From Dimargaris cristalligena (Eukaryota): a stretch of 41,751 bases of DNA. Positions 1 through 25,424 of the stretch are shown here, piece after piece (within the stretch, counting starts at the first letter, position 1; each line of letters opens with the position of its first letter). Made by a program: the position numbers and the translations under genes. The stretch lies in the NCBI GenBank assembly GCA_003614675.1, contig ML002324.1:1-41751 (forward strand), given 5' to 3'. Below the pieces are notes generated by a model that did no database searches, was not told where the DNA came from, and worked only from the letters and a program-made list of their open reading frames with translations.

Positions 1-2687
1 GCGGCGAAGTGGTCGTTACTAGCTGAACATAATGAATAGGAATGCCTCCCAAGGGAAGTTGGGGTAAAGGAATGTTCAGGATACTTACTATTCGTTATAG
101 AAGTGTATGAATACGCACAAATGGATAGGTGGTTTATACGATGCTAAATTTAGCCACCTAAAGCGGGCGATATGCAGCAACCGAGATTATATTTCCTGGA
201 TAATTTGCTCACACCAAGCTTATATGGATACTATACCATTACCCACTTGCGAGAGTTGACACACCCACACACACATGTTGGCTACATTTCCCAGACATTT
301 CGCCTGGCACTTGTCATCGGTTTGATTGTTCTGGCAATGCCAAATGCAAATCTTCGTCGAAGTGCCGAATAGCCACCAGTTCTACCTTAACAGCAAACAT
401 CGTTCGGGTGGTCAAAATGGCTTGTGATGGGACTTTCTTTCCAACCTGATCAGTTTTACTCCTCGAAAGGGCGGGATGAACGGTAGGACATGGCAGTCTC
501 AACCAATCCCTCACAGTGGTCAAAAGGGAAGAAATTTGTGGGGTTTACCTAATATTTACATGGCTGTATATCCATAATCTTGTTAGTGCGAAAATTGCTT
601 GTTGTTCCCCACTATGTTTTCCATGGATATATTGATATAACAAGGGAATGTCTAAGTAGGATTTTCGAAAACACAAATTTCGGATAGTATATCATCATAT
701 TCCCAGGTTACGTTGCCTTAGGTGTGTAATAAGATATATGGTGATATTACGGTATAGGAAAGATGGAGGGGGGCATGGGCCAGAAGACGTTGGTTAGATC
801 AAGAGGGGTCGCGTACACTTCTGGTTTAACCAGATATTATATTTGAATTGCGATGCCCTGCCACCCGTGGTGGCCCACTAACTCCAAATAACATTCATTT
901 AACGTTTACACCTGCCAAGGTACACCCAAGGCGACCTACCCACTCAAAATATGGGATACCTGCCATCGCAGATTGCTCAAACAAAATATTATGGAAACGC
1001 ATCATAGATAGATTGTTATTCCCCTGAAGGCGATGTGATAAGGAGAATGGGCGATAATACTACCAGCACTTTTCCTTTAGTCCAAAAGCACTGGGTAAAA
1101 TGACTCTACTTTCTTATTCAATTCCTAAAAATTGACTGTGACTTTTTGGAGTAGGAGGTGTCATGTGCGTCTAGTTCCCGCAAGTCGAACCCATTTCGCA
1201 CTTAAATCAGTCGCTTATAAGCCGCTCTCGGATCCGTAACACTATTAACGACCCCCCTAGTGCCTTTTCATTTCCTGCTGATTCTCCTGAGTCGTTATTC
1301 CGGTTATTGTTGTGATTATTACTATTTCTTTTGCAATACTGATGGTATTCGGAATTCTAGTATTTCCCATAGTGAGCTTCATATGGGCCTAACTAAGTTA
1401 CCCTCGCATTTCTTATGACAATATTTCTAATTCCGCCCTTTCTTCCGGGGCACGATGCTATTAGGTCTGAAAATTTTAAGGTATCGAAGTCTTGTAAAAT
1501 GAACTAAAGCAAGATACACATTTATACCTGATTAGATTACGAAGGTTTACTATAGAGATCCCCGCTCGGGGCCATGGGCGAATATATTGAATACTAAATA
1601 CAGGCAATCTTCTCATGTGTAATTCGTAACCAACATGATACATAGGCCCAGTCCACATACAGTCGGCTTGATCGCTGCCTATCTAATATATGTATTGGCC
1701 CTTTTTATTAATAACTAAAAAGTATATCAATTTCTTAACATGCTTTCTGTCAATATCTTAATTTGAGTATCCAGATGCGCGGGCTCTTGGGTCGAAGTAC
1801 ATAAACCACTTACCGTGTCTTGTATGTCCAAGCAGCTAAGTGTTATCCTTGGTCGGTATTGTACCTTATTAGGCGGAAGGGTAATAGCCCAATAGCATTT
1901 GCCTCCATTGCCCAGTCTGGTAAACCCTGGCTAGCAAGGCTGGTGCATAACTGACGTGTAGTTCCCGGATATAGCAGGTACCATAGTGCGAGCGTGGTGG
2001 GTTGGGGATGAGATAGAGCTGCGGAGTGAACCACCCTTGTGACCTGGCCTGGCTTTATCTGGTCGGTGACTGTAGGGCGGGGCTTAAGGGATTTATAGCC
2101 CACCATCATCGTCACCCGCCTCAGCCTGCGGAGGGAAGCACTGCACCAGTCAAGGATGGCGTCAACCATGTCGGGTGTATATTGTGGTGACCAAACAATC
2201 TGCGGTAGCATTTAACAACTAGTTTATACGCGATCGCCCTGTCGTTGTATGCTATCTCAAATAGGCCCTAATAAGAAACCCTAGATAAAGAGGCCAACTA
2301 CCACCGTTGGCGGGCATAATGCGTGCATGGTACTTTCTGCCAGCTGGTCTTTAATAGAAGGTATATTATTCTGGGCCAGGGAGAGAAAACCATTATAAAC
2401 ATTTCTGGATATTCGTGGGTATATGCGGTCAAATACCGCCCCGCCTTTGAATCGCCCGGATTGGTCCGCTAGGGCATATATTCTTTGTTTAGCTCCCTCC
2501 CTCCACTTATTTAGCGGTCGCTATTCCCCTCACGTTGGTCTTGAGCCTATCCCATTCCCTTTACTTTAGTCCACTCTCCGCTCATTCCCTTCTCTACCCT
2601 ACTCTACTTTCCTCCATTTACACACTCCTTATTCCTTTATTGCGTCTCCTCGTGTTATCACTGCCCTCCTCGTCGACCTAAGTGCAC

Positions 2688-3737
2688 ATGTCCGCCGAGA
2701 CCAGTGTTCTGCTCGGACTACGGTTCAAAAAGGCGGCCAGGGAAATACAGTCCCTCACCGCTGCCTTTTCGCCAGCCGTTACCCTCGACCGCAAACTGCA
2801 CCTCTATGCGCTTTTCAAGCAGGCCACCGAGGGTGACTGTACTTCCTCTAAGCCGGCCTTTTTCTACGCCGTTGCTCGCACCCGCTGGGAAGCCTGGAAC
2901 GGGCTGCGTGGTCAAACCAAGGAACAGGCCCAGGTTCGGTATATCGACGTGACTCTTGAGGTAAGCATAATCGCCGTGGCTTGGTCTCTTCGGATTATTC
3001 CTTGATTTGATAACCATGGGGGAATTTGACTCTTCGCCATCTAGTGACTGTGGGACTTTTCACTGTAACCGTACCAGTATTAACGGCGGGGTGAGAGGGG
3101 ATCAAGGATCAGCCGGAAACTGCACCGAACTGGTCGTGGTGGGAGTGGATGGTAAAGCCATTGTTGTTGGTGCATAATAATAATAGCGGTCCGCCTGTTC
3201 CCCGCTCAGTGCACTTATTTGCCTGTTTATTTGGGTTCTCTAAAGAACGGCCGGGGGTTATGTAAGGCCTAATGTGCTTGGAGGGGAGGGTTGAAGCCCT
3301 GACAGATACCGTATTTCGATGTAGTAAATAGCATGTGTGAAGTATAGGGTGACCTGTCTTTTTCCCACCCAGCGGCCTCCGTCGCTAATTCACACTGGGC
3401 CATTGTGCTTGATCACTGTCTCATTTTTGCCTCTCTTGGAGGTGAGGTCCGAGTATCATACTGTGATCCGGCACATCTCCCCACCCTCCTGTCCCTGCTG
3501 ATTTATTGTAATGTCCGTCTTTGGGCCATTGTTCTCTTCCCACCGCAGATGGGCCACCTGCAGAATGAAGGAATATGCCTAGCCTTCCGGCCCTGCCGTT
3601 TAATAACCCCGAATACCCGACCATTCTCTCCACCTGTGCTTTGCTTGTTCCTAACTCCCCCTACTTCACCGGTCCGAATTTATTCTATTCATTGTCCAAC
3701 GCTGTAGTACGTCGAACAATTGTTTAATCGACTGTGA
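2688..3737 (+). CDS. Short ACBP isoform join(2688..2960,3708..3737), 100 aa, ending ...YIDVTLEYVEQLFNRL*
   Basis: Branch-like CTAAC at 3651-3655. The first AG downstream of it is TAG at 3705-3707. Phase-0 continuation TAC GTC GAA CAA TTG TTT AAT CGA CTG TGA gives a protein of normal stand-alone ACBP size. Confidence 0.55.
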
Positions 3738-6700
3738 CCGCTCTTCAATAATTTTCTTTTATTATCTATCAAACCATCAATATTATTGCTTCCTAGGTCC
3801 TCCACGACCTTTCCGATAGCGATCCCCGTCGTACTGCCATACCGGAACTTACTATTAAAGAAACTTCCGATACCTCAACTGAATCGATGCAGTACTCCAC
3901 CGTCAAGACATCTATTGCCGACGCCATGGCGAATATCACCGGGGGCGAGGGAGGCACGAACGCCGGCCTCAGTGACTCGGAGAGCTCTGGTGGCCGCAAG
4001 GATTTGATGGATGACCAGTCGTCCTCCGGCTCCACCCACAGTTCGCCGGTCCTTGTGACTGGCTCAGTGACTCCAGCGACTCAACTTATTCGTGCTTCAA
4101 CCTTCTCCTCCCCCCAATTACCCTCAGCCCGAACGTTCAGGTCTTCTCGTTCATCGCCGCGCCCGACCTTCTCGTCTATATCCCTGCCCATAACCTCAGT
4201 GACTACCGCCACTTTAACGGACTCGTTTGACCAAAAACGAGCTCACTCGGTGAGTGCCTCCGTCGTGACAAGCTCGACCCATTGGGAGCTGCAGTCCGAT
4301 TTTACTGGGCATTCCGAGGCACATGTCAATGAGATGGACCGCATGGTACCCGCTCCAGGTTCAACCTCGATGGACAGCAAAATGGACCGGCCAAGCCTCC
4401 CGGCGTTTTACGGAAGCCAACCCTTCTCCGGAAACCCCACCACCATTCTTCCGGTTAGTTCGGTTATTAACACCACCGAAATTACCGAAGTGAATGTCAC
4501 TGCTTCTCGCCCTGTTGGCCCTGCCTTCGGTTTCAGCGAATCAGTTGGTTTCAATGTCTCTGCGTCACTCCCGGTGACTAACACCACCGAAGTAACCGAA
4601 ATAAATATCACTGCACCAGCCCTGGTGAGCCCCACCGTCGGCTTCAGTGAATCCATCGGAATCAATATCAACTCCTCCGATTTCATTCATTCACACACCA
4701 ATAAAACTGAAGCCGCCGAAGCGAATATCTCAACCTCGCATTCAACCGACTCGGCCATTAGCACCAAGGCCCCGGTATCCTTCTCGGTTAGTCCGATCAC
4801 CGACCTTACCGATACCGTTGGGGTAAATATATCGGTCCCCTTCCCGGTCAGTTCCGCTATTGGCTTCTTGGAAACCCTGGCGAGCAATGTAGTTAACCGT
4901 TTCCCGGGTACTTCAAGCTCTAAGTCAACCGTGGAGAGTGAGACGAGCGAGGCAAATCTCGTTACCACCCATAGCTACGCCTCGGTTGTGAGTAACCAGA
5001 CTGGCCAAGCCGAAGTGTATATCCCTACTGTCGTGCGGGTCAGTGAATCGGCGATCACCCACACTGGCCAAACCGTTACGGACTCGATCATTCCTGTGAG
5101 CCTTGATGCGGCCATTGGATTCGGCGAAGCTGTCAAAACAAATATGAGCACTCTCGCCCAAGTCGGTGGCGCAATCATTGCCGAAACTGGCGCCGCCTAT
5201 ATTAGTGCTGCGACCCCCTATTTAGTTGACCAGTCTACTAGCAATATGCAGGCATCGCAAATTACCGTTGATGTCCCCTATCCCATTGGATCGATTGCCA
5301 GCATCGGTGGGGCCACAGACATGCATACTTCTACATCCTCGCATGTCAGGGATTCTTTCACTAGCCAAATCGAGGCTACTAATACCAATACCATGGCTTC
5401 GTATTCCACTAGCGCAATTGCAAGCGTTTCACAAGCATCGGAGGTCAGCGTCGATGCTCCCTATCAAATTGGCACTATTATCGATATTAGCGGGGCCACG
5501 GACATGCACACTTCTACGTCCTCTCATTTCAGGGACTCGGTCACTAGCCAAACCGGGATTACCAATATCAACATCACGGCACCGCATTCCACTTCCCATA
5601 CCATTAGCGAAACGCACGTGTCCGAGAATTATATCTCGGCTCCCTATCGAATCGGCACGCTTATCGGCGTCGGCGGATCCACTGATATGAAATACACTTC
5701 AGCATCGCGAGTCGGTGGTTCCCTTGTTACCGAGACCAATATTTCTAGTGACAATTCCACAGTCCCGTTTTCCACTCATCAGATTACAGGCGAAACACAG
5801 GGGTCTGAAATTAACGTCACAGCCCCCTATCGAATCGGTACAGTTGTTAACGTCGGCGGTGCCGCAGTTGTGGATACACATATGACTTCGCATATCAGGG
5901 ACTCGACCACTAGTCATACCGAAGAAGATGGCATCCACATTACCGCCCCGCACTCCACTATCCATTTTACAAATGATACACGCGTGTCAGAAACTGGCGT
6001 TGATATCCCCTATCGAATTGGCACAGTTATTGGTGTTGGTGGAGCTACGGACATGTACACTTCTACGATCTTGCATGCTACGGATTCGGTCACTAGCGAA
6101 ACCAAAATTATCAACATCAATCCCATGTCACCGCATTCCACCAGCCGGGTCACTAGCGAAACGCAAATAGCCGAAATTAATGACACGGCCCCCTATCGAG
6201 CTGGCGCGGTTGTCAGAGTCGGCGGCTCTACAGATATAAGTTACGCTTCATCCTCACACGCCAGCGGGTCGGTTATTCCGGACACCAATACTTCTGGAGT
6301 CAATATCACGGCCCCCCATCGAATTGGTACGGTGTTCAGTACTGGCGGTGCCACGGACATGCACACTTTGACGTCCTCTCATGCCAGGGACTCGATCACT
6401 AACCAAATCCAGAATACCAATCTCAATATTACGGCACCATACACTATTGGTCAGGCCACCGATGATACAAGGGTTTCGACAATCAGTGTCGATGTTCCCT
6501 ATCGGATCGGTACGGTTGTCGGCATCGGTGGAGCCAAGGAAATGGGTTACTCTTCAACTTCGTATATCAGCGGATCGGCTATTACCGAAACTGGTATTTC
6601 TGGTATTAATATCACGAGTCCGTATTCCCCCGGCCAGTCTGCCAGCGATTCCCGGATTTCGACAATCAGTGTTGATGGGCCCTATCGAGTTGGCACAGTT

Positions 6701-9700
6701 ACCGGAATAGGCGCTGCGAAAGACATGGGGTATATCTCGGCCTCGCATGCCACAAACTCGACCACTAGCCAAACCGAAGTTACCCATAAAAATACAACAT
6801 CATCGTATTCCGCTGGTCATATCTCAAGCAATACGCAAGGGTTGGAGATTGATATCACAGCCCCGTATCGGATCGGCACGGTCGTCGGTATTGATGGATC
6901 GGCTATTGCCGAAACTGGGGTTGCTATTACCAATACCACTGCCTCGTATTCCACTGACCAGACCACCAGTAATGCACGAGTGTCCGGGATAGGCATCGAC
7001 ATTCCCTATCGAGTTGGCACAGTTGCCAGTATTAGTGGAGCGAAGGATATGGGGTATATTTCGGCCTCACATGTCAGCGGGTCGGCTATTACCGACACTA
7101 ATACTTCTGGAGTCAATATCACGACCCCCTATCGAATTGGTACGGTTGCAGGTGCTGGTGGTGTAACGCACATGGATGCCACTGCGCCCTCTCATATCAG
7201 CGGATCAGCTATTACCGAAACCGGGGTTGCTAGTGTCAATACCACAACCCCGTATTCCACCAGTCAAACCGCCAGCGATACCCTGGTGTCGGGGATCTGT
7301 ATTGAAGTGCCCTATCGAGTCGGCACAGTTACCGGGATTGGCGGAGCGAAAAACATAAGTTATATTTCATCCTCGCATACCAGCGGATCAGTTATTACCG
7401 AGGACGATATTCCTGGAAGCAATAGCACGACCCCCCATCGTATTGGTACAGTTATTGGCGTCGGCGGTACCGCGGGCATGGATCCCACTTCATCCTCGCA
7501 TGTCAGAGACTCGATCACCAGCCAAATCCAGAATACTGGTACCAATATTACGGCACCGTACTCCACCAGCCAGGCCCTTAACGAAAATCGCATATGGGGG
7601 GTTAGCATCGATGCCCCTTATCGGATCGGCACGGTTATTGGTGTTGGCGGAGTCACTTATACAGATACCAGTACATCTTCACATATCAGGGACTCGATTA
7701 CAGGCCAAACCACTGCCACCAGTATCAGTATCACGGCACCGTACTCCTCCAGTCAGATAGCCAGCGAAACACATGTGTCAGAAATTAATTTTGATGCACC
7801 CTATCGAATTGGCACGGTCACCGGTATTGGCGGGACCACGTACACAGATACTAGTATGTCTTCACATATCAAGGACTCGATTACAGGCCAAACCGAGATT
7901 ATCAATGTTGATATCACAGCTCCGTATTCTATTGGCACGGATACCAGCGGTACATGGGTGCCGGGTATTGGTGTCGCTACCCCCAATCGGGCCGAATCAT
8001 CTTTGAGTCAAACTGACATCACTTTGGTCAGCTCTTCGGTTTCCACGACTGGTGGCCCGGCCTTTAGCATTGGTGGCAGTGCTGAGCTGAATATGGGCAC
8101 CTCCCGACCCTTAGGCCCGACCACTAGTCAGGCTGAAATTACTTCGGTAGCCGTATTGTCACCCACACCCTGTGGCCTGAGAATCCACGGTTACGGAAAT
8201 TCAGGAGCACACGTAAAGGATTCCCGCCCAGTAGGGTCGGTCAGCGGTCAAACCGAAACTATATCGGTGACTACCCATGGTCCTAAGCCCTGCGGTCCAG
8301 GCATCATTATCGGAGGCGACGTGAGATTTGATGTCGGATCTACTCACACGACGAGTTCCGTCGCTGACCAAACAGATATTACATATTTCAGTAGTTCGAC
8401 TCCCAAGCCCTGCGGTTCGGGTGTCATCATCGGAGGCGATATCAGATTCGGGACGGGAATTTCTCACTCCACGGGCTCCATTACAAACCAAACAGGTATC
8501 ATATCTGTGGGCGTTTCGACTTCTAAGCCCTGCGGCCTAGATCCCATTGTCGGGGACGATGTAAAATTCGGGGTTGGACATGCCCACTCGACGGGCTCCA
8601 TTATCAGTAAGACAGATACCATATCTATGGATATTTCAACCCCTGGGCCTGGAGGTTTTGGCGTTAGTGTCCATAGCAACGCTGGATTGAATAGTGACGG
8701 TCGTTACAATACAGGTTACGTACCCGGACCGACCAAAATCACCGTGGTTGATGCCTCACACCCCAAACCTACTCTCCCGCCTCGCCACTTCGGCGGATAC
8801 TCCGAAACCGAGTTGGACAACACCCACACGGTCGGGTTTATCACGAGCCATGGTGGAATTACGACGGCTACTGCTCCAAAATTCACTCCGTATAACCCAG
8901 GCCAGAGTGTATATGGCAGTGTAGGTGTAAATCCTGGCAGTTCGTATACCACGAGTTCAACCTTCTCCCAAACCGAGATTACGTCAATTAGCGCTGTGGC
9001 ACCAAGCCCATGTGGCCCGGATATTGCTGTTGCCGGAAACGCCGGTGCGAGTCTTGGTAATTCCCACGCTGCGGGATCCGTCACTAGCCAGACCAAGACT
9101 ACTTTAGTAGATAGCTTAAATTCCAAGCCTTGTGATCCAAAATTTGGCATTGGCGGCAGTGTGGATATTAATATTGGCAATACTAATTCGTCGAGTTCCG
9201 TTGTCAACCAGACAAGGACCACTTCGACGCACATTTCGACACCCAAGCATTGTGGACCGGGTTATAGTGCCGGCGGGGGTACGGGGCTGGATACTGGAAG
9301 TCCTCGTCCAGCTGGTATCATTGTTGGCCAAACCGAAATCACAACAATCAGTACGTCACCCTCCAAGCCGTGTGGCCCGAGTGTCGGTGCTGGTGCCCAC
9401 ATTGGATTGACCGGCAACGTTACTTACCCCAAGAGTTTGATCACTGGGCAGACCACCACTACTTCGGCCAATATCTCAACACCTCAAACCTGTGGGCCAC
9501 CTCGCCAATCTAGTGGGTACTTTTATTCGGGGACTGGAAAGCAGATTTCAATGGACTCGTCCGTAACGCAAACCGAGATTACTACGGTGAATATTGCTAC
9601 ACCCAAACCCAGTGGCCCAGGTTTTAATGCCAGCGGAAGTATCGGACTGAATACCGGGGGCACTCACAAAGCTGGATCCACCGCCACCCAAACCAAAATC

Positions 9701-12700
9701 AATACCGTTGGGGTCTCTAATCCCATATCTAGTCAGCCAGGAATTATTGGTGTTGGTGGTGGTAGCGGAGTAAACGTGGGTAGTCCTCACCCTACCCATT
9801 CGACGGTCAGCGAGGTTGGTATTACATTAATAGAAGCAACTGTGCCCATGCCATGCGGCCCGAAAACCAACGCAAGTGGACACATGCCCAGGGTTAGTTC
9901 TACCACACACTCCAATCGCCCGGCTATCCCTCACACCGACATGAGTACTGTGAGTGCTACTAACCCGGTACCTGGTGGTTTTGCCCTCGGTATTAGTGGA
10001 AATGCTGGCTTTAATTCCGGTAACTCCCATGCCGCTAACTCGGTTGGAAATCAGACGAGTTATTTTGATATTGGGGCCACCACTCCTATGCCCTGTGGAT
10101 CTAGTACGGGCTATAGTGGAAATGGTGGTGGAATAGTCGGGAACTCCCACCATACCCATTCGACCACAATTCAATATGGATTGGATACCATGGATATGCC
10201 TGCTCCCATGCCGTACAACTCAAGCCATGGAGTCGTCGCTCACATCCCTTTGGATGACAGTAACCTTCCCCCCGCTGGCACTGGCACTGGCGCCAGCCAA
10301 GCCGGCCAGATAGGGACTGGTACATCCGGTACTATACATGGTGGTCAAAATATTGGGTTCGGCAGTCATACAGAGCTGTATGGCAGAGCTCCACACCCTA
10401 ATGCACCAAACGCCGGTCCAAGCAGGTTGCCTCAAGGGAATTATACTCCGACCCATATGACAGCTGGCCCGAAGGTTGGCTTTGTCGAATACAGCGACGG
10501 GTACGTGCCTATGCCGACCCCTAGTCACCCCAATATCGGATTCAACGCCAATGTTAGCGGCGAAAGTACTACATCTCGGCCAGATACCCAAGATGCTAGT
10601 TATTCTGGCCATGTCAACACTACTATTTCGGCTAATATGCCCTGTGGTCCATCCATTGGATTTTCCGGGCAAACCAGTACAACCTCCAGTGTTTCGTATC
10701 CTCCCCTCATTACCGCCGGCCAACCTGGGCCTGCTGGCGTGCAAGTGTCGATGCCCATGCCCAAGACTGGCGAGTCGACTATCTACATCGATGGCCACAT
10801 TGAATCGAGCAGTGGCGGCTTCCACCCTGGTCGCACGGTTATCGGCCAAGCCGGTATCCCTACGTCTGATGTTCTCGGCCCCACCCCCTATAGTCAGACC
10901 ATCGGGTTCAGCGGGCAAGTCACCACATGCGACAGCACTTTGCGACCCATTTATCCGACCTCTGGCGTATCCGGTACCACCGGGGTGAACATATCTGCCA
11001 CCACTCCCTGTGGCCCATCCACCGGTTTCAACCAAACCTCGGGAATGAATAGCTGGACTTCTCATACTGTAGGCTCCTCTGTTAATCAGATTGAAGTCGC
11101 TGGTGTGAACGTTTCAAGTATGTCTAGTGGCTCCACCACCCTTGGCTTTAGCAGTCACACTGGTATGAATACCACTACACCACGCCCTGCTCACCCAACC
11201 TTAAACCGAGTCCCTCATTCCGAATATATTCCGGCCTTCCCTATCCTCTCGGGCCAGAACCTCGGTCTTGGTGGACAATGGGATATAAATGTTACGACAC
11301 CTCGCCCACCCCACCTCGCCGTTAGCCAAACGCACATTCCCGACCCGAGAGGGCCTATGCCTAGCTCAGGTGGAACAAACATTAATCTCAGCGGTTACGC
11401 CGGGGCGAGTACCGGGGGCCACCATTCCGTACAACCGATGGTCTCCCAGACTGAGATTACTACCGTGAACATTTCGACACCAAGCCCACATGGACTCATC
11501 CGCCAAGACAAGACCCGCATCAATGTGAGTGGTGGCACCCCCCACCCCACTGTCTATCAAACCAACACCTCTGGTATCAACGTAGGCGCGACTATGCCCA
11601 GTGGTCCTGGTCCAAACTGGAGTGGCCAGACCAATACAACCATTGGGGGAACTCATACCGTTCAACCAGCTTTTAGCCAGGCCGGAGCTTCCACGTTGAA
11701 TATCCCAGTCCCAGTCCCCGTACCGCAGGGCCCGGGCTTCACCCACAGCGGAAGCATCGAGATTAGAGATAACACTTCCCAGGCAAGCGTCAATTTAGCT
11801 ACGCCTATACCATACGGCCCTAACCACGGTTCTGGCGGACATGTTGGAGTAAGTGGCAGTGTACCTCTTCCCGGTTCCATATATACCAACCAGACCAACT
11901 CTACGACCGTTAACGTGACTACCCCCCAGGCATGTGGCTCGAGTACGGGACTCGGTGGACATTCAGGGGTGAGTGTTGGAGCTACTCGACCTGGGCATCC
12001 AACCACTGTTCACACTGATATTACATTAGTTAGCGGGACGACTCCTACATCAAATGGCCCGACCGTTAGTATCAGTGGTTCTTCTGGAGCAACTGGCCAT
12101 ATTCCACCCCATGGCGGACCCGCCATCGTACCACCGGGGTATATAGCCGTGGCAGCGCCTTCAAATACCCCATGTGGTCCGCCTCGCGACTTCGGTAATC
12201 ACGGTGGCATGACCGGGACAGTTCCCCAACCTGGTAACCCAGTTACGTATCAAAATACCCATGGTAGTGGTGGTGGCCCTATCCCCGGCCCCTATGGGCC
12301 AGTCCATGGCCCCAACGGACATTTTGGCGCAAGTGGCAATGTTCCACATCCCAACCATCCAAATACCCACCATACGGACATTTCAGGCGTGCATATCATC
12401 AACACCACATCCAGCGGCTCGGGTGGTAACTTTGCTGGTCATGCCGGAGTGAACGCGACTACCGTCGGACCTGGTCGACCTGCTCCCAGCCATTCCCTTA
12501 ATGTTGGAGCTAATTGGCCCAACCCTATGGCTCCCGGTTTTAACGGACAAGCTGGCGTGGGTGTCGGGGGATCCCACCAGCAATTCCACTCAACAGCCAA
12601 TCAGGCTGGAGTGCCGGGTATCAGTATGGGTGCCCCTATGCCCCATGGTCCACCTTTCAGCCACGGTGGAGACGCTGGGGTAAATATATCTGCACCAGGT

Positions 12701-13060
12701 CTCCCTCCCCAATATTTTTCCACGACCGTAGAAGCTAGTATGGCGTCTGAGGCGGAACATACCATAGAGCTACTACAGACCCAGATGATGGCGCTCAACG
12801 AGCGAATTGAAATGCTCCGACACGATGCCCACGAGCGAAACAACCGGATCGTACGTCGTATATCCACTTTACGGGTCATTTTGAAAGCCAACTTCAGCCG
12901 CTTTGTGGTTGGCATGATTATACTGGCGCTTGTCATACTATTCCCGTACTGGCGGCGAAAGCGTTGGGTCAACCTGTCGCTGGGTAAGATTCGGGGATTT
13001 ATACCGTTCCTGCTCAACTATTTCATGGGTAAGTTCCTAGACACAGTCGTGTTTTTTTAA
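2688..13060 (+). CDS. Giant ACBP-domain tail-anchored protein (Atg37/ACBD5-like architecture), long isoform join(2688..2960,3797..13060), about 3,178 aa
   Basis: Exon 1 encodes an ACBP domain (KLHLYALFKQATEGDC...KPAFFYAVARTRWEAWNGLRGQTKEQAQVRYI) and ends GAG|GTAAGC in phase 0. The acceptor CCTAG at 3792-3796 opens in phase 0 into the frame of the 3887..13060 ORF (VLHDLSDSDPRRT...ESMQYST). The C-terminus has a coiled-coil-like segment (EHTIELLQTQMMALNERIEMLR), a hydrophobic helix (FVVGMIILALVILFPY) and a basic cluster (WRRKR). Confidence 0.75.
4445..12700 (+). repeat. Coding tandem-repeat array, roughly 60 degenerate units of 40, 41 or 61 aa, rich in Ser/Thr/Gly/Pro/Ile
   Basis: PYRIG-type anchors at 5276, 5459, 5642, 5825, 6008, 6191, 6314, 6497, 6680, 6863, 7004, 7127, 7310, 7433, 7616, 7799, 7922 (spacings 183 or 123 nt, one of 141). 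A PCG-type anchor position (motif degenerate in some units) recurs at an exact 120-nt period from 8168 to 9728 and continues with small indels to about 12650. Confidence 0.92.
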
Positions 13061-14694
13061 TGTTCATGCTCATATTAAGGGACTCTCCTCCTTCACAATT
13101 CATGCGGTTTGGGTATTATCCTAGTCGAAATCACTTTGTTAGATTGCGGCTAATAAATGTGAACTGCGACTAACCCAGCTTGCTCCAATTTCTATGATTA
13201 TACTCTATTATTATTAACTTGAATTGAACATCTCGATTCTCGGATTCGAACCATCTAGGCATGTTTCGGGCCCCTAGTAAAGTTTTCGGCCTAGGCTATA
13301 CCCAGCGACGCTGTGTCAACCACCCTTACTAACGGACGCTGCTTTTAAAAATTGCTCAAAGTCTAAACTCAACAGCGGTGTGTTATCCTTGGCAAGCACC
13401 TCCGAGTCCCATTGCCCGCCTACCAGCCCTCATATAATTACGCACATACCATTCGACTTTCAATGTTTACGCATCAGAAACCATTGACTTATATCGCTAT
13501 TGATTTTTACCTAGTATAATTTAGTTTATACATTTATTCCATCAGTGTAGCTATCCGATATATATATTTTTCATCAGGCTTGCTACCACCATCGATATCT
13601 GAATCTATACTACCTCTCAATGGTATTCTAAGTGAGAACATATTAGTTGGATCTATAAATATTACTTTATTAGGAATAATGAAACAAATGGTCTGGTAGA
13701 GTGGGACACCGGGGATTGTATTAGGTGTAAGCAGGAAGGACGGTGGATTTTACGTTTGTCGAAAGTTAGACTGGCATTTAGCTGTCGCTAGTATCAGCTT
13801 CCCGGTCAACGGTTATTATAGACGGGGAAGTATCTTTTATATGTTTGTTGCTTAGGTATTGTTCATTCTATCAATGAATATCTCGATATCCGCTTTCTTG
13901 GGCTATAGCAGCCCCCACTATTAGACTCTGCCCATACACGCTTGTAATTAACCTCGAACTAGATCCCCCAGAGGTTTTTATGTAGGTACTTATGGCTTTA
14001 CGAATAACAACAGAGTATACTAGTAGTAGACTAGTTTTATTGGGGGGAAATGTGTGTAGCTTCAACCTGAATCCACGTCACTGGAACTGGAATTGGCGAC
14101 TTCCTGGTATCACGGGACAATTCTAGCGCCTTAGTATTTTTTTTTCATCAGTTGTGGCTCTGTATAATGCGCAAGCCAACCCCAATATAATCCGCAGCAA
14201 TTAGTAATTAATGGCTGATTCGGCCGGATGGGAATATATTTCTGGTAAATGGCTAGAAATTAAGTACCACCAGTTAACGCATAGATTCAATGTATGCTGT
14301 TGTGGAGCACCACCATTCTAATGTATATGTGGGATATCTATTTTTTTCAGTAGGGCTGTTTCCAAGAGCCACAGAGATTAAGCAAGCAAGGCCTCCCTCA
14401 TTAAGCCATACTCCATGCTTGTGTGTAGGTAAGGTAGGTAAGAGGTAGGTAGGTGTAGTTCTCTAGCATCATTTACCCCAATCCATAAAAAAAAAACTCA
14501 TCAAGTACACATATAGTCTCGCTTGACTTGCGCAAGCTGCCCTTTTTGTGTTGTTCCTTTACTCTTCTCTTTCCTCCTTCACTTACTCCTTAGTGTCCTG
14601 TACTTTTGTTCTTCTTGAGTTGATTGTAAATTTGATCTCTCGCTCAATCTCCCAACCCAACCTTTCCTTTTCTACTTTAAGCAAAGCCACCATC

Positions 14695-15237
14695 ATGATC
14701 TTCAACTTCCTGAACACCTCCCGCGCCTTCGCTGCCCGCTCCGCCGGCCTCCAGCAGGTGTCTTTCTTCAGCACCTCCCGGCTTGCCCTCATGGCCTCCC
14801 GTTCCATTTACGTTGGCAACATTCCGTGGCGCTCGACTGACGAACAGATCCACGAGCTGTTCGAGACTTTCGGCCCCGTGGCCAAGTGCCACCTGCCCAA
14901 GGACCCCATGGGCCGCCTCAAGGGTATCGGATTCATCGATATGGCCACTGACGAGGCCGCCGATAAGGCTATCGAGCAGCTCAACGGCTACAGCTTCCTG
15001 GGCCGTGATCTCCGTGTGTCCTACAGTTTGAACGAACGCCGTTACACCCCCGGTAACTTCCAGAACCGCACCCCCCGTTTCGGTGGTGAGCAGCAGGAAC
15101 GTGGCGAACAAATGAGCCGGAGTTATAACAACAACAACCAGGCTTACGTGCGTCACAGCGACTACGCCCAGGAAGGTACCGACTCCCACAGTGAGCAGCC
15201 CACCGAGACCCCCTTCCCCCCTACCCAAAAGGAGTAA
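14695..15237 (+). CDS. Single-RRM RNA-binding protein with probable mitochondrial targeting presequence, 180 aa
   Basis: ATG at 14695. The N-terminus is rich in R/S/A/F with no acidic residues (MIFNFLNTSRAFAARSAGLQQVSFFSTSRLAL). RNP2 IYVGNI and RNP1 KGIGFIDM are present. Strong C-ending codon bias; no intron needed. Confidence 0.88.
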   Translation: MIFNFLNTSRAFAARSAGLQQVSFFSTSRLALMASRSIYVGNIPWRSTDEQIHELFETFGPVAKCHLPKDPMGRLKGIGFIDMATDEAADKAIEQLNGYSFLGRDLRVSYSLNERRYTPGNFQNRTPRFGGEQQERGEQMSRSYNNNNQAYVRHSDYAQEGTDSHSEQPTETPFPPTQKE

Positions 15238-16068: not shown

Positions 16069-17090
16069 TTAGTAAGGAGCGTATCCACCACGACGGCCCC
16101 TGTGTGAAAAAAATATAATCAGGCAATGCGCAAAATCGACCAAATGGAATTATACATTAGCAAAATAGATCTCGCCCATGTTGTTGTAATACATACACAT
16201 TGTATAGATATAGATATAGATATATACCGCTAAGCTGGGAGTACTGTCTCCACTGCAATTGACCTATACTTACCGGAAGAAGCTAGAGCGGCCCCGATAA
16301 CCGCCACGGAATGGCCGACGGCCACGCGAGAAACCTCGGCCACCGGGCCCATTGAACATCGGAATATTGGTCCGCTTGGGGGTGACCTTAATCTCGCGGT
16401 CGTGCAGTGCGGTGCCTTCGAGTTTCACGGCATTGTCGACACTTTCGGCCTCGGCGAATTCCACATAGGCAAATCCTTTGGGTTGTCCAGTGATCTTATT
16501 GCAAAGGATAGTCACCCGGTTGATGGTACCGCAGGGCTGGAAGAGCGCCTGGAGTTCCTCGGGCGTGGTGCTGTAATCCACGTTGCCCACGTAGACGGAC
16601 CGCGTGTCGATTTCCTCCTTTTGGGTGCTGACGGCCCCGGCGGCCGTGACGGCGGTGCCCTGGCTCAGCTCCCTCTCGGCCTCTTCCTGCAGCGTACGGA
16701 GCTTCGCGGCTTCCTGTTCCAACTCCAAAACGCGCTGCTTCATGGCTTCGATTTCCTGTACGGAGTAGAGAGTCCCATTCAAAAAGAAAACCGGAGGAAA
16801 GGTAGAACAAAAGAAGAAGAAGAAACAGTAAGTCAATGAAAATTGAGGGGGAATTTCTGTTAAGGATGGTGGTGAATACGGGGCTACCATGATGCTGGCA
16901 GTCGGAGTATAGGACTCAGGGAATGTGCGCGTGTCGGCCATTACTCTGCAATTCACTTGAAACTGCGGTCAGAGAATCGCATACATGGTGCCTTTGTGAG
17001 GGCCTGGGCTAATGCATGTGGGCGGACACTTACCGGATCGTCGACCATGAGGGTGGCAGGGTCGGGGGTGGTGATGCTTTGGTCGGTCAT
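16069..17090 (-). CDS. PAB2: Nuclear poly(A)-binding protein 2 (PABPN1/Pab2/Sgn1 family), complement join(17034..17090,16274..16755,16069..16099), 189 aa
   Basis: Coiled coil [35 protein letters not shown]...KGFAYVEF...[12 protein letters not shown] tail ending [10 protein letters not shown]. Two GTAAGT...CAG introns with consistent phases (0 and 2). Confidence 0.93.
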
Positions 17091-18095
17091 TTTAATAGTA
17101 ACAAAGTAGGAGATGGGGCTGTGTAAAACAAAAAAGAATGCGAGTATTCTGATCGTAAGTGCGACTGGAGGTAGCAGCGGCTGGCTAGTTGGCTTCCAAA
17201 AATTAGCAGGAATGGGCTTTGTTGGACGTGTCGCGAAAAAAAATAATCTGATAGGGTGTGTGGGATAGTAGAAAATCAGCGTATAATTCTTTGGTTTCAG
17301 AGCAGGGAGTATGAGTGGTTTTAAACCTCCATAATTTCGGTGCTTAGTTGCCCTACAATGCGGTATTTGAATGGACTACAACCACCATTGCTTGCCAAGG
17401 AGATTCACAAATAGCCGCTATTCTTTAATGGCTAACAGAGCCCCTTCTCTTCAAAGTAGGCGTCACTTTAGCCCTTGTTATTAGGAAATTACTACCCACA
17501 AAAGCGGGCTGTGTATTTAAAATTCAAGTCATGTGACATGGGTCTCGAGTATGAGGCTGCTAATGAAAAGAGCGCGATGGAAACCCTCTTCTAAGCACAG
17601 TATTCCAGCTTCGAATCAAGGAGAGAGCCAAAAAGAAATTGGCTTTCCAACTTGTCACCGCGCTTAACCACCCGGCATTATTAGTTTAGACTGGAATTTC
17701 CGGGGAAGCCACGGCAATGGTAAGCCGGTGTGGAATACCCCACCACAATCAATACCAATGGCAAGTCTTTAAGCCATTGGGCGACACCTCCCTCTATACC
17801 TGATTTAATTGTGTGGTTTCATAAATGCCCCTGTCGGTGTTCCCTTCATTATTATAGCTTATGGGGCCATAGGTGATCTTAGAACGCAATCCAGGAATAA
17901 TCCACCGGGGAAAGTTTAATAAATAATGTCAAGGAAATTATTTTCTAGTCGGCCAAGGCATCATCAGCCAATGCCATTATTGGCGAAGTGACTATCACTT
18001 GACCGTTTGGCAGAGAGACATACATACGTTGGAAAGTCAAGAGGGCTATATAGATCTGGACCTTACTGCTTTGCTGCCAACACCGTATACGGGCA

Positions 18096-19301
<1,206 letters not shown>

Positions 19302-19979
19302 TTATATATATATAAACACCAAAACTAGATGATAGACCCGAAACAATAGAGATAGATGAGCATGTAAAACGAGACTCTGAGACAACAAACGGCTGCTTGA
19401 AGGCTTAGAGAGGGGTTCGCCTAATATCATCCACAGCACAGACGCGAAAATTGGAAACTTCCGTTAGAGTATTGGCTAGTGGTATTTAGGAACCTATTAT
19501 GGGGCTTGTATTTTAACCCCAGTTCAAGGGGAAGTAGCCTAAATTAACCACTTTAAGTTTACTCTCGCCTGGTGTCCGGGACAACGTGTCCCTGTTATAC
19601 TATCTTTATATATATATATAGTTGTAATAATTACTCATGAAGTAGACCCATAAGGCCCCGGGCATATGGGGTTAAGCAGGTGATCAGAGTCGTTTTAGGA
19701 TTACTGTGGACATAACAGTCAAGCCAAGGCTGGTTTTTTTTTCAATACTAAAGTATGGGGTTTGGCTTTACCAATGGACCATTCAGCCCATGCCGAGGGT
19801 CCTTTTTCACCTCCACCAAAACCCTTAGAGCTACTTGAAGCCACCAGTTACTCATTTCACTCAACCCTACTTTTACTATTCGTGCTCTCCGACTCATTGG
19901 CCCTCCCCCCACTCTTGCTAAAGGTGCCTCCTATTTTCGACTGCAACTCGACTGTTGAATTTTTTTTACTACACAAAGA

Positions 19980-22030
19980 ATGTCGGCCGAAAGGACCAAA
20001 ATCTGCCACTACGACCTGCTCGGGGTTTCGTTCGATGCCACTTCTGACGAGCTTAAGAAGGCCTATCGGCAACAGGCCCTCCTATGGCATCCAGGTAGGT
20101 CAACCACTACCAGTCCAGCTGACCTACATTTGTAATTTACCCATTGGCCTCGGGAACTTCAGATTAACCGTGTGCTGCCCTTGGTGACCGGGCTTCGTAA
20201 GGGGGTTTTCGGCCTTGCAATATCTAGCTAACCCGTACTGTATCCCACCCATGGCTCTCCCACGTCCTTCCCACTAGATAAAAACCCCCATCGAATTGAC
20301 GAGGCGACGGCCTATTTCGCTCAAATCCAGAGTGCCTACCAAGTACTTTCCGACCCCCAGGAACGGAGCTGGTATGTCATTACATCGTTTATTACTACCT
20401 CTCATTGAGATTTATCATTGTTTCAGTTGGCGGATAATGTGAATGCAGCACCAAGTTCAACCTACCGATATCCACCTAAATATCTTTGTACGTCTGTTTT
20501 AATTAGGTACGACGACCACAAGGATGCGATCTTACGAGGCGGTAAGTCCTATCTTAAGGACTTAATGTCGGCTCATTTACCAGACCACAACAATTCCTAT
20601 AGGAAAATAATGTGTTGGAATGCTATTGTCAGCATGATCCATGTGCTAATCTGAGCCCCGTCCTATATTTACTCCTAAACTACATGCCTATCCATTTACA
20701 GCCGATCTAAATTCCGCCGACCCCGACTCCATGACTTCGGGCCCCACCTCGGAGGCCCTCATGAAATACTTCTCCGACACCATGTTCCGTGGGTACTCGG
20801 ATTCTAAAGATGTAGGTATTTTTTAAAGGTAGAGAATAAAGGGGGAAACCGTGACAAGATTCAGAGTGCCCTTTGGACAGATACGATTCTAACTGTTTCC
20901 AACCCTTTCCACCATAATCATCGCTATTGAACCCTGGTAACCGGTCCCCTTCTCATATCTTTCTATATCACCATGCTGACAACTTATATGCTATTTCAAA
21001 TACTATTATCTATTTCAGGGATTCTTCATGCTCTATGGTAAAATATTCCGTGCTGTATCGGATGAAGAGTTACGGGCCGCCGGGTCCAGTATGGACCCAG
21101 ACCTTAAACAAGCCCTGTCCAATTTAGATTTCGGCCAATCGTTCACCCACGCCAAACAGCCCATCAACCGGAATGATGGATCCCGGCATACATACACCCT
21201 TCTTGAATACTACAGTTTTTGGAGCTCTTTCTCGACCTGCCGTAGTTTTGGCTGGCACGAAAAGTACCGGCTTAGTGAGGCGCCCAACCGCTATGTCCGC
21301 CGCGCCATGGAGAAGGAAAACCGCAAGCTTCGGGAGTCGGCCCGGAAGACCTATAATGATACCGTTCGGGTAAGTATTAGTTAGTTTCGTCAATTATCTT
21401 CGTCCATGCTTAACCAGGAACCTGACTTAACGTTTGTTTTCCATCTCCATTTATATTTATCCCGCTCCATAATCCCCCCCACTCTTCCCTCTTTAGTCGC
21501 TTATTACCTTTGTCAAAAAACGTGATCCACGCATTCAAGCGTGGAACGCCGAGCAGCAGGAGCTCCAGCGGCAGCGCGAAGAAGAAAAAAGTCGCCTAAA
21601 GGCGGAGGCCAAAACCGTCCGGGTGAAGGTGAACTACCAGGCCCCCGCCTGGGCCCAGGTGGATGATGCCGCCTATGACAGGTTATTCGGGTTGGCCGAT
21701 GGGGGGGTAGGCTCGGACAACAGTGGTACCGGGGATCAGACCCCCTCTTCCACGGTCGATGCCGCAGCGGAACCGACAGTTGCTGAGGCCCTGGTGGCTG
21801 ACCTGGACGCCTTGCGAGTAGACCACGCCGACCAACAACCAGCCTCGGATGCGACAGAGGAGGCGGGCTTAGAGGGTGAAGACGAGCTGTACTGTGTGGT
21901 GTGCGACAAAGCGTTCAAATCGGTGCCCCAACGCCAAAATCACGATCGGTCGAAAAAACATATCAAAGCGCTACAACAAATGCGGGTCCAACTGTTGGAG
22001 GATGACGAATTTTTCGAGGGCGGATTTTAA
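19980..22030 (+). CDS. JJJ1: DnaJ co-chaperone of the Jjj1/DNAJC21 family, join(19980..20094,20278..20371,20507..20541,20702..20811,21019..21369,21497..22030), 412 aa
   Basis: J-domain CHYDLLGV...[18 protein letters not shown]...[27 protein letters not shown]; Jjj1 motifs [18 protein letters not shown] and FVKKRDPR; C2H2 finger [23 protein letters not shown]. All five introns are GT-AG and in phase. Confidence 0.93.
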
Positions 22031-22306: not shown

Positions 22307-23677
22307 TTAACTATTAACAGCCGAGTCCACTTGATTAGGGGTGTATGGTTTGTTGATGCCAAAGTCGCCCGAGAAATCACTCCCGCTATCATCGTTACCA
22401 AACGGCTGGATGGCTTCTGCTGGACGGGTGTATTGGATGACGAGTCCCGCCATGACCAAACTGCCGAACACCGTCATGCCGATCACCACCAGATTCTGGG
22501 CCAAGAGGGACACCTGGGCCGCATCCAGCTGCCAGGAGACGGCGGTTCCAATGGACTGCACCAAAAACAAGAACCCCAAATGATGGTCCAGGGACTCCAC
22601 GTGGGGGAATACCAGGGTCAGGGCCCACAGGGAGAATGCGTTGATCACCGCGTCGAGGGCGCCCCACTGCATAAAGACGGCCAGTGGTCCGAGGTAAGCC
22701 ACCTGGGTAAAATCGACGAGCCGGCCCGTCCGCTGCCCATGGACTTGAATGGCCAAAGCCCCCACGTACGACGCGAGGACCATCACCAGGATGGCCGCCA
22801 GCAAGGTCAAACCGCGGAATCGCCGGGACCAGTGGGGGCGGTCCAGGAGCCAGCCCAGAACATAGGAACTCGTGAGGGAACTGAGGTAGTATACAATACA
22901 ATTGATGGCGCGCGTCCGAATGGTGAAGAGCGTGAAATTAAACCCGTTGAACTGGTAGGCGTAGTAGAATCGGGTGATGGCGAAATAGGGGATGAATAGG
23001 ACCAGGGGACCGTCGCGGGCCGCCCGAAACAGGAGCCTAATTTCGCGCCGCCAGCCCTGGAATTTCGGCACAACGATGGGGCTACCGTCGTCCTTGGTCA
23101 GGTACCGCGGCGACACCAGTAGGAGCGACAGCAGGACGGCCACAATGGTGACGGCCGTGGCCACGTAATAAGTGGCCAGACCCAAGCCGCGAGATGAGTT
23201 ACTGTAGTTGAGGCCCAAGGCCACCGCACCGCCCACCACACCGTTGAGCGACGCTACCAAGAAAAAAGTCGACAGATAAGACCCGCGCTGGGCCTCCTGG
23301 GGGTACGACACCAGCATCACCGACTGGATCATCCCGGACATGAGCAAACCAAAACCCTTTAGGGCCCCCGTGATCACGACCGGTGCGGGTTGGGGCCAGT
23401 ACGCGAACAAGACAAATGAGGCCATGAACAGCGTGTAGGTAACCGAAGCAATGAACATGGCCAGGCGCACGCCGAGGTAGTTGTTGACGCCGCTGACGAC
23501 GAGGCCCGCCACGCAACTGGCGATGGCCCCGGCGACGTTGGCCCGCGCTGATATGCTGCTGTCCATCAAACCCCCGCCGCCAACCCCCAGAACGGCATTC
23601 CAACTGGCGTTGATGCAGAGCGATATCAGAGCCGCGATTACCACCTGGCGGTAGGGGGTGTAAAACCTCGGGATCAT
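22307..23677 (-). CDS. UNC-93-like MFS membrane protein, about 456 aa, intronless
   Basis: Multiple hydrophobic helices. Motifs YTPYRQVVI...NAVLGVGGGGL, MLVSYPQEAQRGSYLS and YAYQFNGFNFTLFTIRTRAIN resemble fungal UNC-93-like proteins. First ATG in frame is at 23677. Confidence 0.85.
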   Translation of the reverse strand: MIPRFYTPYRQVVIAALISLCINASWNAVLGVGGGGLMDSSISARANVAGAIASCVAGLVVSGVNNYLGVRLAMFIASVTYTLFMASFVLFAYWPQPAPVVITGALKGFGLLMSGMIQSVMLVSYPQEAQRGSYLSTFFLVASLNGVVGGAVALGLNYSNSSRGLGLATYYVATAVTIVAVLLSLLLVSPRYLTKDDGSPIVVPKFQGWRREIRLLFRAARDGPLVLFIPYFAITRFYYAYQFNGFNFTLFTIRTRAINCIVYYLSSLTSSYVLGWLLDRPHWSRRFRGLTLLAAILVMVLASYVGALAIQVHGQRTGRLVDFTQVAYLGPLAVFMQWGALDAVINAFSLWALTLVFPHVESLDHHLGFLFLVQSIGTAVSWQLDAAQVSLLAQNLVVIGMTVFGSLVMAGLVIQYTRPAEAIQPFGNDDSGSDFSGDFGINKPYTPNQVDSAVNS

Positions 23678-25424
23678 TAGGCGGGATATGTTTGGGGTGT
23701 GGCCAACTGAGTTCCTGAATTTAAAATGGGTTAACTGGGCCGATGCAAAATGAAATAATAAAAAACAGTCACCGATTAGGAGCAGGCGGACATATAAAAA
23801 CACCTCAATCGACAGGCTGGGTTGAAGTGAAAATAGATTAATTAAAAACGGCGAAATTTATAACAGCAACAATGAAGCTTCAATTAGGAAAAAGTATGTG
23901 GACTAAATAAACACTTTACATAGCGAGCCAAAAAGAAACGTAGATTCGGGGCAATACCCCCATTTATAAACCCGCGTTCCAGATGGCTACGTCCCAGAAA
24001 AAACAGGGATGTGCAGTATATTCGTATATTGGGTAATCGAAAAGAGTAGTCCCGATACGACCGAGATATTCTACCCCAGGTATTTTTCAGACAAGTAGGT
24101 CTTTGTAGATGTAGTATTCGTATTTTTTTTTGGGGGGGGGAGGGGTGGATAGGTAAGGGGTAATACGAGTAGAGCATTCCCAGCTTACCCCAGATGTCCA
24201 TGTTCAATGGAAGCAATGGCGGGTGACCGATCGACTTTTTCATGTAGGCCAACCTTTTAATCCGTCACCAGTAATGGTACATATTTGGCATCAATTGTAT
24301 TTGTCAAGTAGAGTGCGATTTTATTCCACTCCAGGGGCGGAAGGGGATAAACCCTAATTACCGAGGCAGCTGAAGGGCTGAGGAAGGGCGGTCACTATGG
24401 GCAAACCGTTTGGTTCCTGGAATCTTAGTTGGGGGGTTCCCCCGTCCCCTGTTGGCCGTGTGCCTAATCCCTGTAAGTTACAGAATGCAACCAAGGGGCG
24501 AAGACGCGGTTTACCCAAGTGGGATAACCGTGCCCGGAATATCTCCGAATGGCTGAAAATGACCTTATTGAATACGTGGAACCAGGTAGTTTACGCTGGT
24601 TTATGGTGCATCTCGGTCGACTGCATCGAGAATACTCGAGGATAGCAAAGGGAGCCAAAGTAACGGGCGATGCAGGTCCGTAGACTTATAACTAACTGAT
24701 ACAAGTGGGCCACATTTTACCTGTATTTTCCTTATTGGGAATCTTGACTACCTTCCACCCGCTCGCCTTGTCCAACTATATTCGAGACTTCGACTTTTAT
24801 CACACCACTGGTCGACCCCCCTTTATACGAATCTGGATAGTTTATAGTGATAACCCGAATGGCTGGATAGCAGGCAGCTTATTGACTAGGATATATATTT
24901 GGAATGGCAACAGCGGATGAGTTCAAAAGTATGTGGGTTGCAGTCTGTGTTAAACAGGGGATTATTTTACTGGGATTAAGGTGTGATTTTCACCGAGGGG
25001 CCCCAAGTGTAAACAACAGTGCTGTCCGTTGACTACAGCCATTTGGGTGGGGTCGCAGTATGCCAGTCGGATCAGCCTATATTTAGGAAGCAGAAGCGAA
25101 TAAATCAAAAGAGAGCATCAGTCCGTGTTTAGCTTCACGTTGTGGATGTGATACTGGCTTTTCCAAATGGGTGTATTTCTCCCACCAAGGCTTTCCGTTT
25201 TTCCACCCCGAGTCCATTCCATTTGTTGTTGACCTTAGGTGACTTACCGACCCATTCCTTTGGTTACTTTTTACCTGACCACTCCCCTCCCTTCCCCTAT
25301 TATCTTGTATAACCCACTAGCCCCCCTTTTTATTTTTATTACAAAGGTTTCCATTTCCGTTCCATCGCGATCTTTCCCATACCACCTGTCCCTTTTTCAT
25401 TTAGTTTTTCTTCAATTCCCTACC

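Follow-up and report, generated by a model that had tools for sequence, protein, structure and literature searches.

The DNA window analysed here, 41,751 nucleotides (nt) of Dimargaris cristalligena (assembly GCA_003614675.1, contig ML002324.1, positions 1-41,751, forward strand), carries near its start a locus in which an exon encoding an acyl-CoA-binding (ACB) domain is followed, after an 836-nt interval, by an open reading frame (ORF) of 3,087 codons. Two acceptors lie at the end of this interval, a proximal one that would give the junction 2960^3708 and a distal one that would give 2960^3797 (Table 1). The locus is probably, though with ample room for doubt, a single gene of the ACBD4/5 (Atg37) type, whose conserved product would be made through 2960^3797 and whose transcript spliced at the proximal AG would be minor or unproductive. 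Splicing at 2960^3797 would make a conserved protein of 3,178 amino acids (aa), in which the ACB domain is followed by a spacer of ~2,970 aa, mostly made of ~57 repeats, then by a helical segment, a transmembrane domain (TMD) with the basic cluster RRKR and a short tail. By analogy with ACBD5/Atg37, we infer that a tail anchor would fix this protein in the peroxisomal membrane and that its ACB domain would face the cytosol, carried on a spacer of unusual length. Its most noteworthy feature, as predicted from the sequence, is a roughly tenfold repeat expansion in an otherwise conserved ACBD4/5 ortholog.

The assignment is carried by matches at both ends of the protein. Exon 1 matched the Pfam profile PF00887 with an E value of 1.3e-23 (83.3 bits, cutoff 28.3), and its residues 12-88 cover profile positions 3-75 of 76; the ACB domain is therefore complete before either acceptor. 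An ACBP-terminal helix supplied by the nine-codon tail behind the proximal AG, which a first-pass annotation of this DNA had proposed, is thus not needed. Exon 1 was used as the query of an exhaustive HMMER search, which returned 3,185 matches at E ≤ 1e-3, among which the best proteins with a single N-terminal ACB domain were P0018 (KAJ1647073.1, Dispira simplex; 349 aa, 57% identity) and P0021 (KAJ1978706.1, Dimargaris verticillata; 377 aa, 52% identity), both named 'Acyl-CoA binding domain containing 5' at their source. Residues 1-91 of exon 1 aligned without gaps to residues 1-91 of P0021 (52% identity, E 6e-32), and residues 4-90 aligned with residues 6-92 of P0018. Residues 1-31 of the giant exon (VLHDLSDSDPRRTAIPELTIK...) continued P0018 at residues 94-124, also without gaps (E 0.022), and the alignments of P0018 to the two exons are therefore exactly collinear. 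At the other end, giant-exon residues 2971-3054 matched P0021 (43% identity, E 2e-21) and residues 2974-3054 matched P0018 (44% identity, E 2e-22), with the sequence FLFPYWRR invariant across all three proteins. On a profile of the two orthologs, exon 1 fell at positions 2-94 and the giant C-terminus at 280-374, and the ACB domain and the anchor sit in one protein in both P0018 and P0021. Because both ends match two ACBD5-annotated proteins, the locus is assigned as an ACBD4/5 (Atg37) ortholog. The earlier claim that a membrane-anchored giant is joined to the ACBP exon is well supported by orthology at both ends and by the collinear continuation.

The two long matches of the exhaustive search, P0019 (2595 aa) and P0035 (948 aa), were rejected as fellow giants, being unrelated multi-domain enzymes. 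A word-index search with exon 1 of proteins of 161-2000 aa found no match among 208 candidates. When metagenomes were scanned with an alignment of the three proteins, 80 loci were retained; their identity was ≤57% throughout, and none of the 80 carried the clade motif KEQA[KQ][VT]RY.

The membrane anchor was delimited by hydropathy and ortholog alignment. Within the 3,087 residues of the giant exon, the segment encoded by 12902-12964 (FVVGMIILALVILFPYW) is the only stretch with a 19-residue Kyte-Doolittle mean above 1.6. Structure prediction of the C-terminal segment gave a long single helix at segment residues 22-103, covering the conserved block and the TMD with pLDDT 75-86, and a tail helix at residues 111-135 with low confidence (pLDDT 52-65 only). 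The coiled-coil-like character of the block before the TMD was judged from the conserved LQTQ..ALNERI..LR sequence together with the predicted helix. The protein therefore has the traits of the ACBD4/5 family, namely an N-terminal ACB domain, a helical region before the TMD and a single C-terminal TMD with basic residues. Its tail, 31-35 aa long, aligns with the tail of P0021 and may be of the fungal type.

Between these conserved ends, a hidden Markov model iterated on the protein itself recovered 57 domains, that is, 57 copies of a 40-49-aa unit of the type ..QTEIT.VNITAP.P.GP..G.GG......SH... over exon residues 222-2967. The repeats run partly in 61-aa and 40-aa registers, with APYRIGTV.G.GG and KPCGP variants. 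At the DNA level, Tandem Repeats Finder reported just two arrays with 74-76% matches. For 11 pairs of in-register copies, the ratio of nonsynonymous to synonymous divergence (dN/dS) was 0.23-0.59 and dS was 0.57-2.1; five pairs with the unit at residue 1260 were excluded as out of register (pN ~0.72). The copies are old. The 3,087-codon open frame and the dN/dS values argue that the array is translated, moderately constrained sequence and not an assembly artefact. The linker from the ACB domain to the conserved C-terminal block measures ~2,970 aa here, compared with ~155-165 aa in P0018 and P0021, and the ~2,750 aa of repeats had no detectable counterpart in either ortholog. A word-index search with repeat residues 560-1400 against proteins of 1697-5403 aa returned 0 matches among 8000 candidates scored, and a query of the ESM Atlas with 725 aa of the repeats gave no usable match. 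AlphaFold2, applied to 200 aa of the repeats as a single sequence, returned a mean pLDDT of 38, at which no fold can be claimed. A sub-threshold Pfam match of the giant exon to NtrZ (18.3 bits, cutoff 27.7) was rejected, and Pfam gave no other match for this exon.

The first-pass annotation had further proposed that alternative 3′ splice sites switch the locus between a soluble ACBP of 100 aa and the anchored giant. Its reading of the letters was largely borne out. The donor at 2961 and two phase-0 acceptors, at a distance of 89 nt and without an intervening AG, were confirmed by direct reading, and translation reproduced both product sizes (91 + 9 = 100 aa through the proximal AG, 91 + 3087 = 3,178 aa through the distal AG) as well as the frame YVEQLFNRL with its stop from 3708. 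For the judgement of the splice signals, ten control introns of the window were placed by ORF continuity and Pfam/homology logic, and were thus inferred from DNA alone. Five came from a Cse1/CAS gene, four from a DnaJ/zuotin gene at 19960-22030, which we take to be JJJ1/DNAJC21-like, and one from a RUS/UVB-sensitive gene. Intron 3 of the JJJ1-like gene, with a weak sole candidate donor (GTTGGA), was left out, as were the unplaceable junctions of the MFS gene and of a single-RRM gene with a coiled coil, presumably PABPN1-like.

The control introns are 127-407 nt long (median 178) with donors GTANGT, and the AG-free run before their acceptors measures 48-136 nt (median 65). Eight of the 10 have a strict yTrAy motif (CTAAC, CTGAC, TTAAC or CTAAT) at 39-66 nt from the acceptor AG, on its 5′ side. 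In a shuffle test of this branch-like motif, 12 of 5,000 shuffles reached 8/10, a result that overstates the case because the distance zone was picked after seeing the data. Such a branch-to-acceptor spacing is much longer than is usual in textbook fungal introns. The term module is used here for a strict branch-like motif followed, 39-71 nt downstream, by its first AG. Nine modules occur in the 2,033 nt of control introns; eight of the nine mark the true acceptor, and at none of the ten penultimate AGs was a module found.

Measured against these ten introns, both AGs of the locus have a branch-like motif in the 39-71-nt zone and an AG-free run. The CTAAC noted earlier before the proximal AG is indeed present, at 53 nt, which is typical of the controls, and the distal AG has TTAAT at 69 nt only. 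What had been called a long T-rich tract at the distal AG deserves rather the name A/T-rich; pyrimidines at -23..-4 amount to 70%, compared with 65% at the proximal AG and 60-95% in the controls. The 87-nt AG-free zone between the two acceptors is ordinary by comparison with the control runs. The presence of CTAAC at a genome-typical distance from a penultimate AG exceeds chance, given that 0 of the 10 controls have such a module there. Judged by its sequence signals, the AG at 3707 can be credited as a candidate 3′ splice site, and on this structural point the first-pass annotation is even strengthened.

The product predicted from it is less distinctive. The intron contains 31 AGs, 29 of which lead to a stop within 55 codons; the nine-residue tail is thus unremarkable, because almost any AG in the intron gives a short tail and a stop. 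Nor is the 100-aa form unique, because the AG at 3043-3044 would yield a 91-aa ACBP equally well; TTGAC lies 15 nt upstream of this AG, and TTGAT 34 and 39 nt upstream. The 84-nt candidate intron in question (GTAAGC...TTGAC...TAG, 2961-3047 including the TGA) is shorter than all ten control introns. The nine-codon fragment gave no match to the two-ortholog profile. RNA folding of 3645-3800 (z = -0.49) revealed no structure that would mask the proximal AG or draw the distal AG closer. A mini-exon between two introns was also considered, with GTs at 3711, 3722 and 3734 giving exons of 3, 14 and 26 nt; only the 3-nt exon keeps the frame, and this candidate was rejected. Because the stop of the short form lies 59 nt before the giant exon, its mRNA would carry ~9.3 kb after the stop. 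A long 3′ stretch after a stop codon is the usual mark of a substrate of nonsense-mediated decay. The short isoform is plausible at the level of its splice signals and stands as a prediction.

The interval itself is an outlier, being 4.7 times the control median in length and twice the control maximum. Five modules fall within its 836 nt, with their ends at 3044, 3441, 3548, 3707 and 3796; by comparison, the 2,033 nt of control introns hold one decoy, and the window as a whole has ~1 module per kb on each strand. This surplus could reflect stepwise removal, extra non-coding exons, chance or a small internal duplication. Possible small duplications are seen at 3396-3409/3522-3535 and 3277-3289/3435-3447, and the repeats within 2400-3900 are short matches only, of 12-26 nt. 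An Rfam search (E ≤ 1) over 2300-4000 gave no match, and thus no known intronic RNA accounts for the intron length.

Taken together, these data are most consistent with a single ACBD4/5-type gene whose conserved product is made through 2960^3797. The proximal AG would compete with the distal one, and its use would truncate the frame after exon 1. Most likely the resulting transcript would be minor or unproductive and probably a target of nonsense-mediated decay; a dedicated mRNA for a soluble ACBP would be less likely. Several points weigh against this reading. The exact join 2960^3797 receives modest support from the alignments, since the 31-residue match to P0018 has an E value of 0.022; no BLASTP alignment to P0021 was obtained with giant residues 1-40, and the post-ACB stretch of the giant alone was not significant against the two-ortholog profile (i-E 12). 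By the standard of the control introns the proximal acceptor seems no worse than the distal one, and perhaps better, and its use could therefore be substantial and not minor. Given the length of the intron and its five modules, a single intron may be too simple a picture of the true structure. Finally, the peroxisomal location and the cytosolic topology are inferred from family membership.

The rival that stays closest to the first-pass annotation is a regulated choice of two 3′ splice sites, which would produce a functional soluble 100-aa ACBP beside the anchored giant. In its favour are the control-like CTAAC with its AG-free run before the proximal AG, the eight of nine control modules that mark true acceptors together with the ten module-free penultimate AGs, and the encoding of the whole ACB domain by exon 1; moreover, ACBD4 isoforms devoid of a TMD are reported in mammals (PMC7057175). 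We nevertheless hold regulated choice to be rather unlikely, since the message would run on for ~9.3 kb past its stop unless cleaved early, and the tail has only nine residues with no counterpart in the two orthologs. In addition, a word-index search with exon 1 of proteins of 50-160 aa gave 4 matches among 7 candidates, the sole close one being the window's own, so that no close short ACBP with this end was found; and in most species the small ACBP is encoded by a gene of its own, according to PMC7057175. Slightly less probable again is the possibility that the 836 nt make up something other than a simple intron, with nested or recursive splicing or with non-coding or poison exons, and with 3707 as one of several acceptors. 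The five acceptor-like modules, compared with the single control decoy, speak for it, as does an AG/GTGAGG at 3440-3447 that would split the interval into 481 + 355 nt, nearer the control range; nested 'stwintrons' have been described in fungi (PMC5639578). This argument consists of motif counting alone, against ten inferred introns and with a distance zone chosen post hoc, and the orthologs leave no space for any additional coding sequence where exon 1 meets the giant exon. A two-output ACBD4/5 gene, in which tandem 3′ splice modules would set the ratio of free 100-aa ACBP to the 3,178-aa tail-anchored form, we consider a more doubtful proposition still. If it were true, the ~57-repeat spacer would hold far from the organelle surface the same ACB domain that is also set free. 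Fully extended, ~2,750 residues at ~0.35 nm each would approach 1 micrometre by textbook geometry.

Two further readings carry very little weight. The locus could comprise two genes, a small ACBP and an independent giant that starts from the in-frame ATG at residue 31 of the big ORF with its promoter in the 'intron', an arrangement that would suit an interval so long by the standard of the window's introns. However, the giant ORF opens right after the distal AG, is bounded there by the TAG and has no ATG before residue 31, all of which supports the join 2960^3797 and makes two genes unlikely; the residues preceding that ATG are open from the first post-AG codon and collinear with P0018, the phases of the two exons match, and both orthologs combine ACB domain and anchor. 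We consider this reading very improbable. Least probable of all, and barely to be entertained, is entry of the short form into peroxisomes by -NRL as a cryptic type 1 peroxisomal targeting signal (PTS1) made by splicing. The earlier description of NRL as non-consensus holds: with N at -3 the tripeptide departs from the canonical [A/S][K/R][I/M/L], and this N is also missing from the plant-derived extended formula given in PMC12316961; NRL passes only the relaxed [A/C/H/K/N/P/S/T]-[H/K/N/Q/R/S]-[A/F/I/L/M/V] of the same source, a weak criterion. Fungi do have peroxisomal glycolytic isoforms made by alternative splicing or read-through (PMC12316961), which lends the idea a precedent. Against it, the preceding residues EQLF are not basic, the short form would first have to exist, and an ACB domain in the matrix would be separated by the membrane from the cytosol, where the family has its ACB domain. 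Peroxisomal targeting of the short form is thus unlikely, and the first-pass annotation as a whole is partly supported.

Table 1. Features of the ACBD4/5-type locus and control introns used for comparison (positions in the window)
Feature	Position	Strand	Details
Exon 1	2688-2960	+	273 nt, 91 codons; ATG at 2688-2690; ends in phase 0 (translation)
Donor GAG/GTAAGC	2961-2962 (GT)	+	read from sequence
Intron with donor GTAAGC	2961-3796	+	836 nt; removal needed for the conserved full-length protein
Further candidate acceptor	3043-3044	+	84-nt intron, then immediate TGA; would give a 91-aa ACBP
AG/GTGAGG, acceptor-like AG adjoining donor-like GT	3440-3447	+	CTAAT 53 nt upstream; candidate only
CTAAC, branch-site-like motif	3651-3655	+	53 nt 5′ of the proximal AG, AG-free between
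Proximal candidate acceptor AG	3706-3707	+	context GCTGTAG/TAC; read from sequence
Hypothetical nine-codon tail YVEQLFNRL and TGA	3708-3737	+	TAC GTC GAA CAA TTG TTT AAT CGA CTG TGA
TTAAT, sole strict branch-like motif 5′ of the distal AG	3724-3728	+	at 69 nt; within the hypothetical mini-exon
Distal acceptor AG	3795-3796	+	context CTTCCTAG/GTC; its TAG is the in-frame stop bounding the giant ORF
Giant exon	3797-13060	+	3,087 codons and stop (13058-13060)
Repeat array	4460-12697	+	~57 diverged repeats, each of 40-49 aa and rich in Ser, Thr and Gly; exon residues 222-2967
Conserved block ahead of the TMD, helical and coiled-coil-like	12713-12901	+	LQTQ..ALNERI..LR; ortholog alignment, structure prediction
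Single transmembrane segment, then RRKR	12902-12964	+	FVVGMIILALVILFPYW; hydropathy, ortholog alignment
Tail after the basic cluster	12965-13057	+	31 residues, second predicted helix (structure prediction); aligns with P0021 tail
Control intron	20095-20277	+
Control intron	20372-20506	+
Control intron	20812-21018	+
Control intron	21370-21496	+
Control intron	25504-25910	+
Control intron	26057-26228	+
Control intron	26397-26627	+
Control intron	26708-26879	+
Control intron	26971-27125	+
Control intron	38716-38959	-

Upstream of the locus, positions 1-2400 have 42% G+C, below the rest of the window, with no ORF of at least 150 codons listed, and a C/T-rich run at ~2490-2680 extends up to the ATG of exon 1. 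Downstream, the Cse1/CAS exportin gene (PF08506, PF03378) occupies 25450-29513 on the + strand, with five inferred introns in its first 1.7 kb followed by an 805-codon exon. The DnaJ protein also carries a zuotin-homology domain and a zinc finger of the C2H2-jaz kind; its gene lies on the + strand and has at least five introns, the third of which could not be cleanly placed. Further Pfam-typed genes lie at 14527-15237 (+), 16273-17100 (-), 18096-19301 (-), 22310-23857 (-), 35442-37643 (+) and 38126-40019 (-). These six loci comprise two single-RRM proteins, one of them with the coiled coil before its RRM, a zf-CCHC_3 protein, an MFS transporter, a 733-codon double-RRM protein and the RUS/UVB-sensitive gene. 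The distant branch-like motifs and long AG-free zones of the window's introns may be relevant to gene prediction in this lineage, whose annotation is poor.

Compared with known systems, the closest relatives are P0018 and P0021, which share with this protein the collinear N-terminal ACB domain (52-57% identity), then the same short segment (VLxxL..D.RR), and the same helical segment, TMD and FLFPYWRR (43-44% identity); the difference lies in the linker, which in the orthologs is free of the ~2,750 aa of repeats. The ACBD4/5 family is characterised by an ACB domain, a coiled coil and, at the C-terminus, a TMD next to a basic stretch; the fungal proteins, one copy per genome, have a longer tail with a short helix (bioRxiv 10.1101/2024.06.21.599987). 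Human ACBD5 and ACBD4, Pichia pastoris Atg37 and Ustilago maydis Acbd4/5 show the same architecture as the protein predicted here, which is six to ten times longer than the sizes quoted in that preprint (409 aa for P. pastoris Atg37, 526 aa for U. maydis Acbd4/5). No description of a giant ACBD4/5 member was found in the available portions of the family literature, and the 275-sequence supplementary table of the preprint may list long ones. ACBD5 and ACBD4 tether peroxisomes to the endoplasmic reticulum and capture acyl-CoAs, and loss of ACBD5 causes a human peroxisomal disorder (bioRxiv 10.1101/2024.06.21.599987). The FFAT motif is present in animals, and most fungal Atg37 proteins are without one according to PMC7057175. 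With its conserved ends and its ~2,750-aa repeat spacer, the locus would be a natural test of spacer length in a tail-anchored lipid-binding tether, and it offers a striking instance of repeat expansion within a conserved gene.

The splicing question is secondary on the present evidence, yet it touches the precedent of non-anchored ACBD4 variants. Cryptic PTS1 motifs in fungal glycolytic enzymes, generated by alternative splicing or read-through, were reportedly described by Freitag et al. 2012. The likeness to these enzymes is that a splice choice alters the C-terminal tripeptide (PMC12316961), whereas they carry a working PTS1 on otherwise complete proteins, and here the tripeptide is non-canonical and 97% of the protein would be lost. 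The mammalian ACBD4 variants without a TMD are nearer in kind, since there too one ACBD4/5-type locus gives rise to anchored and non-anchored ACB proteins (PMC7057175); those variants, however, are documented transcripts, whereas the short form of D. cristalligena is predicted from splice signals and would end nine residues past the ACB exon.

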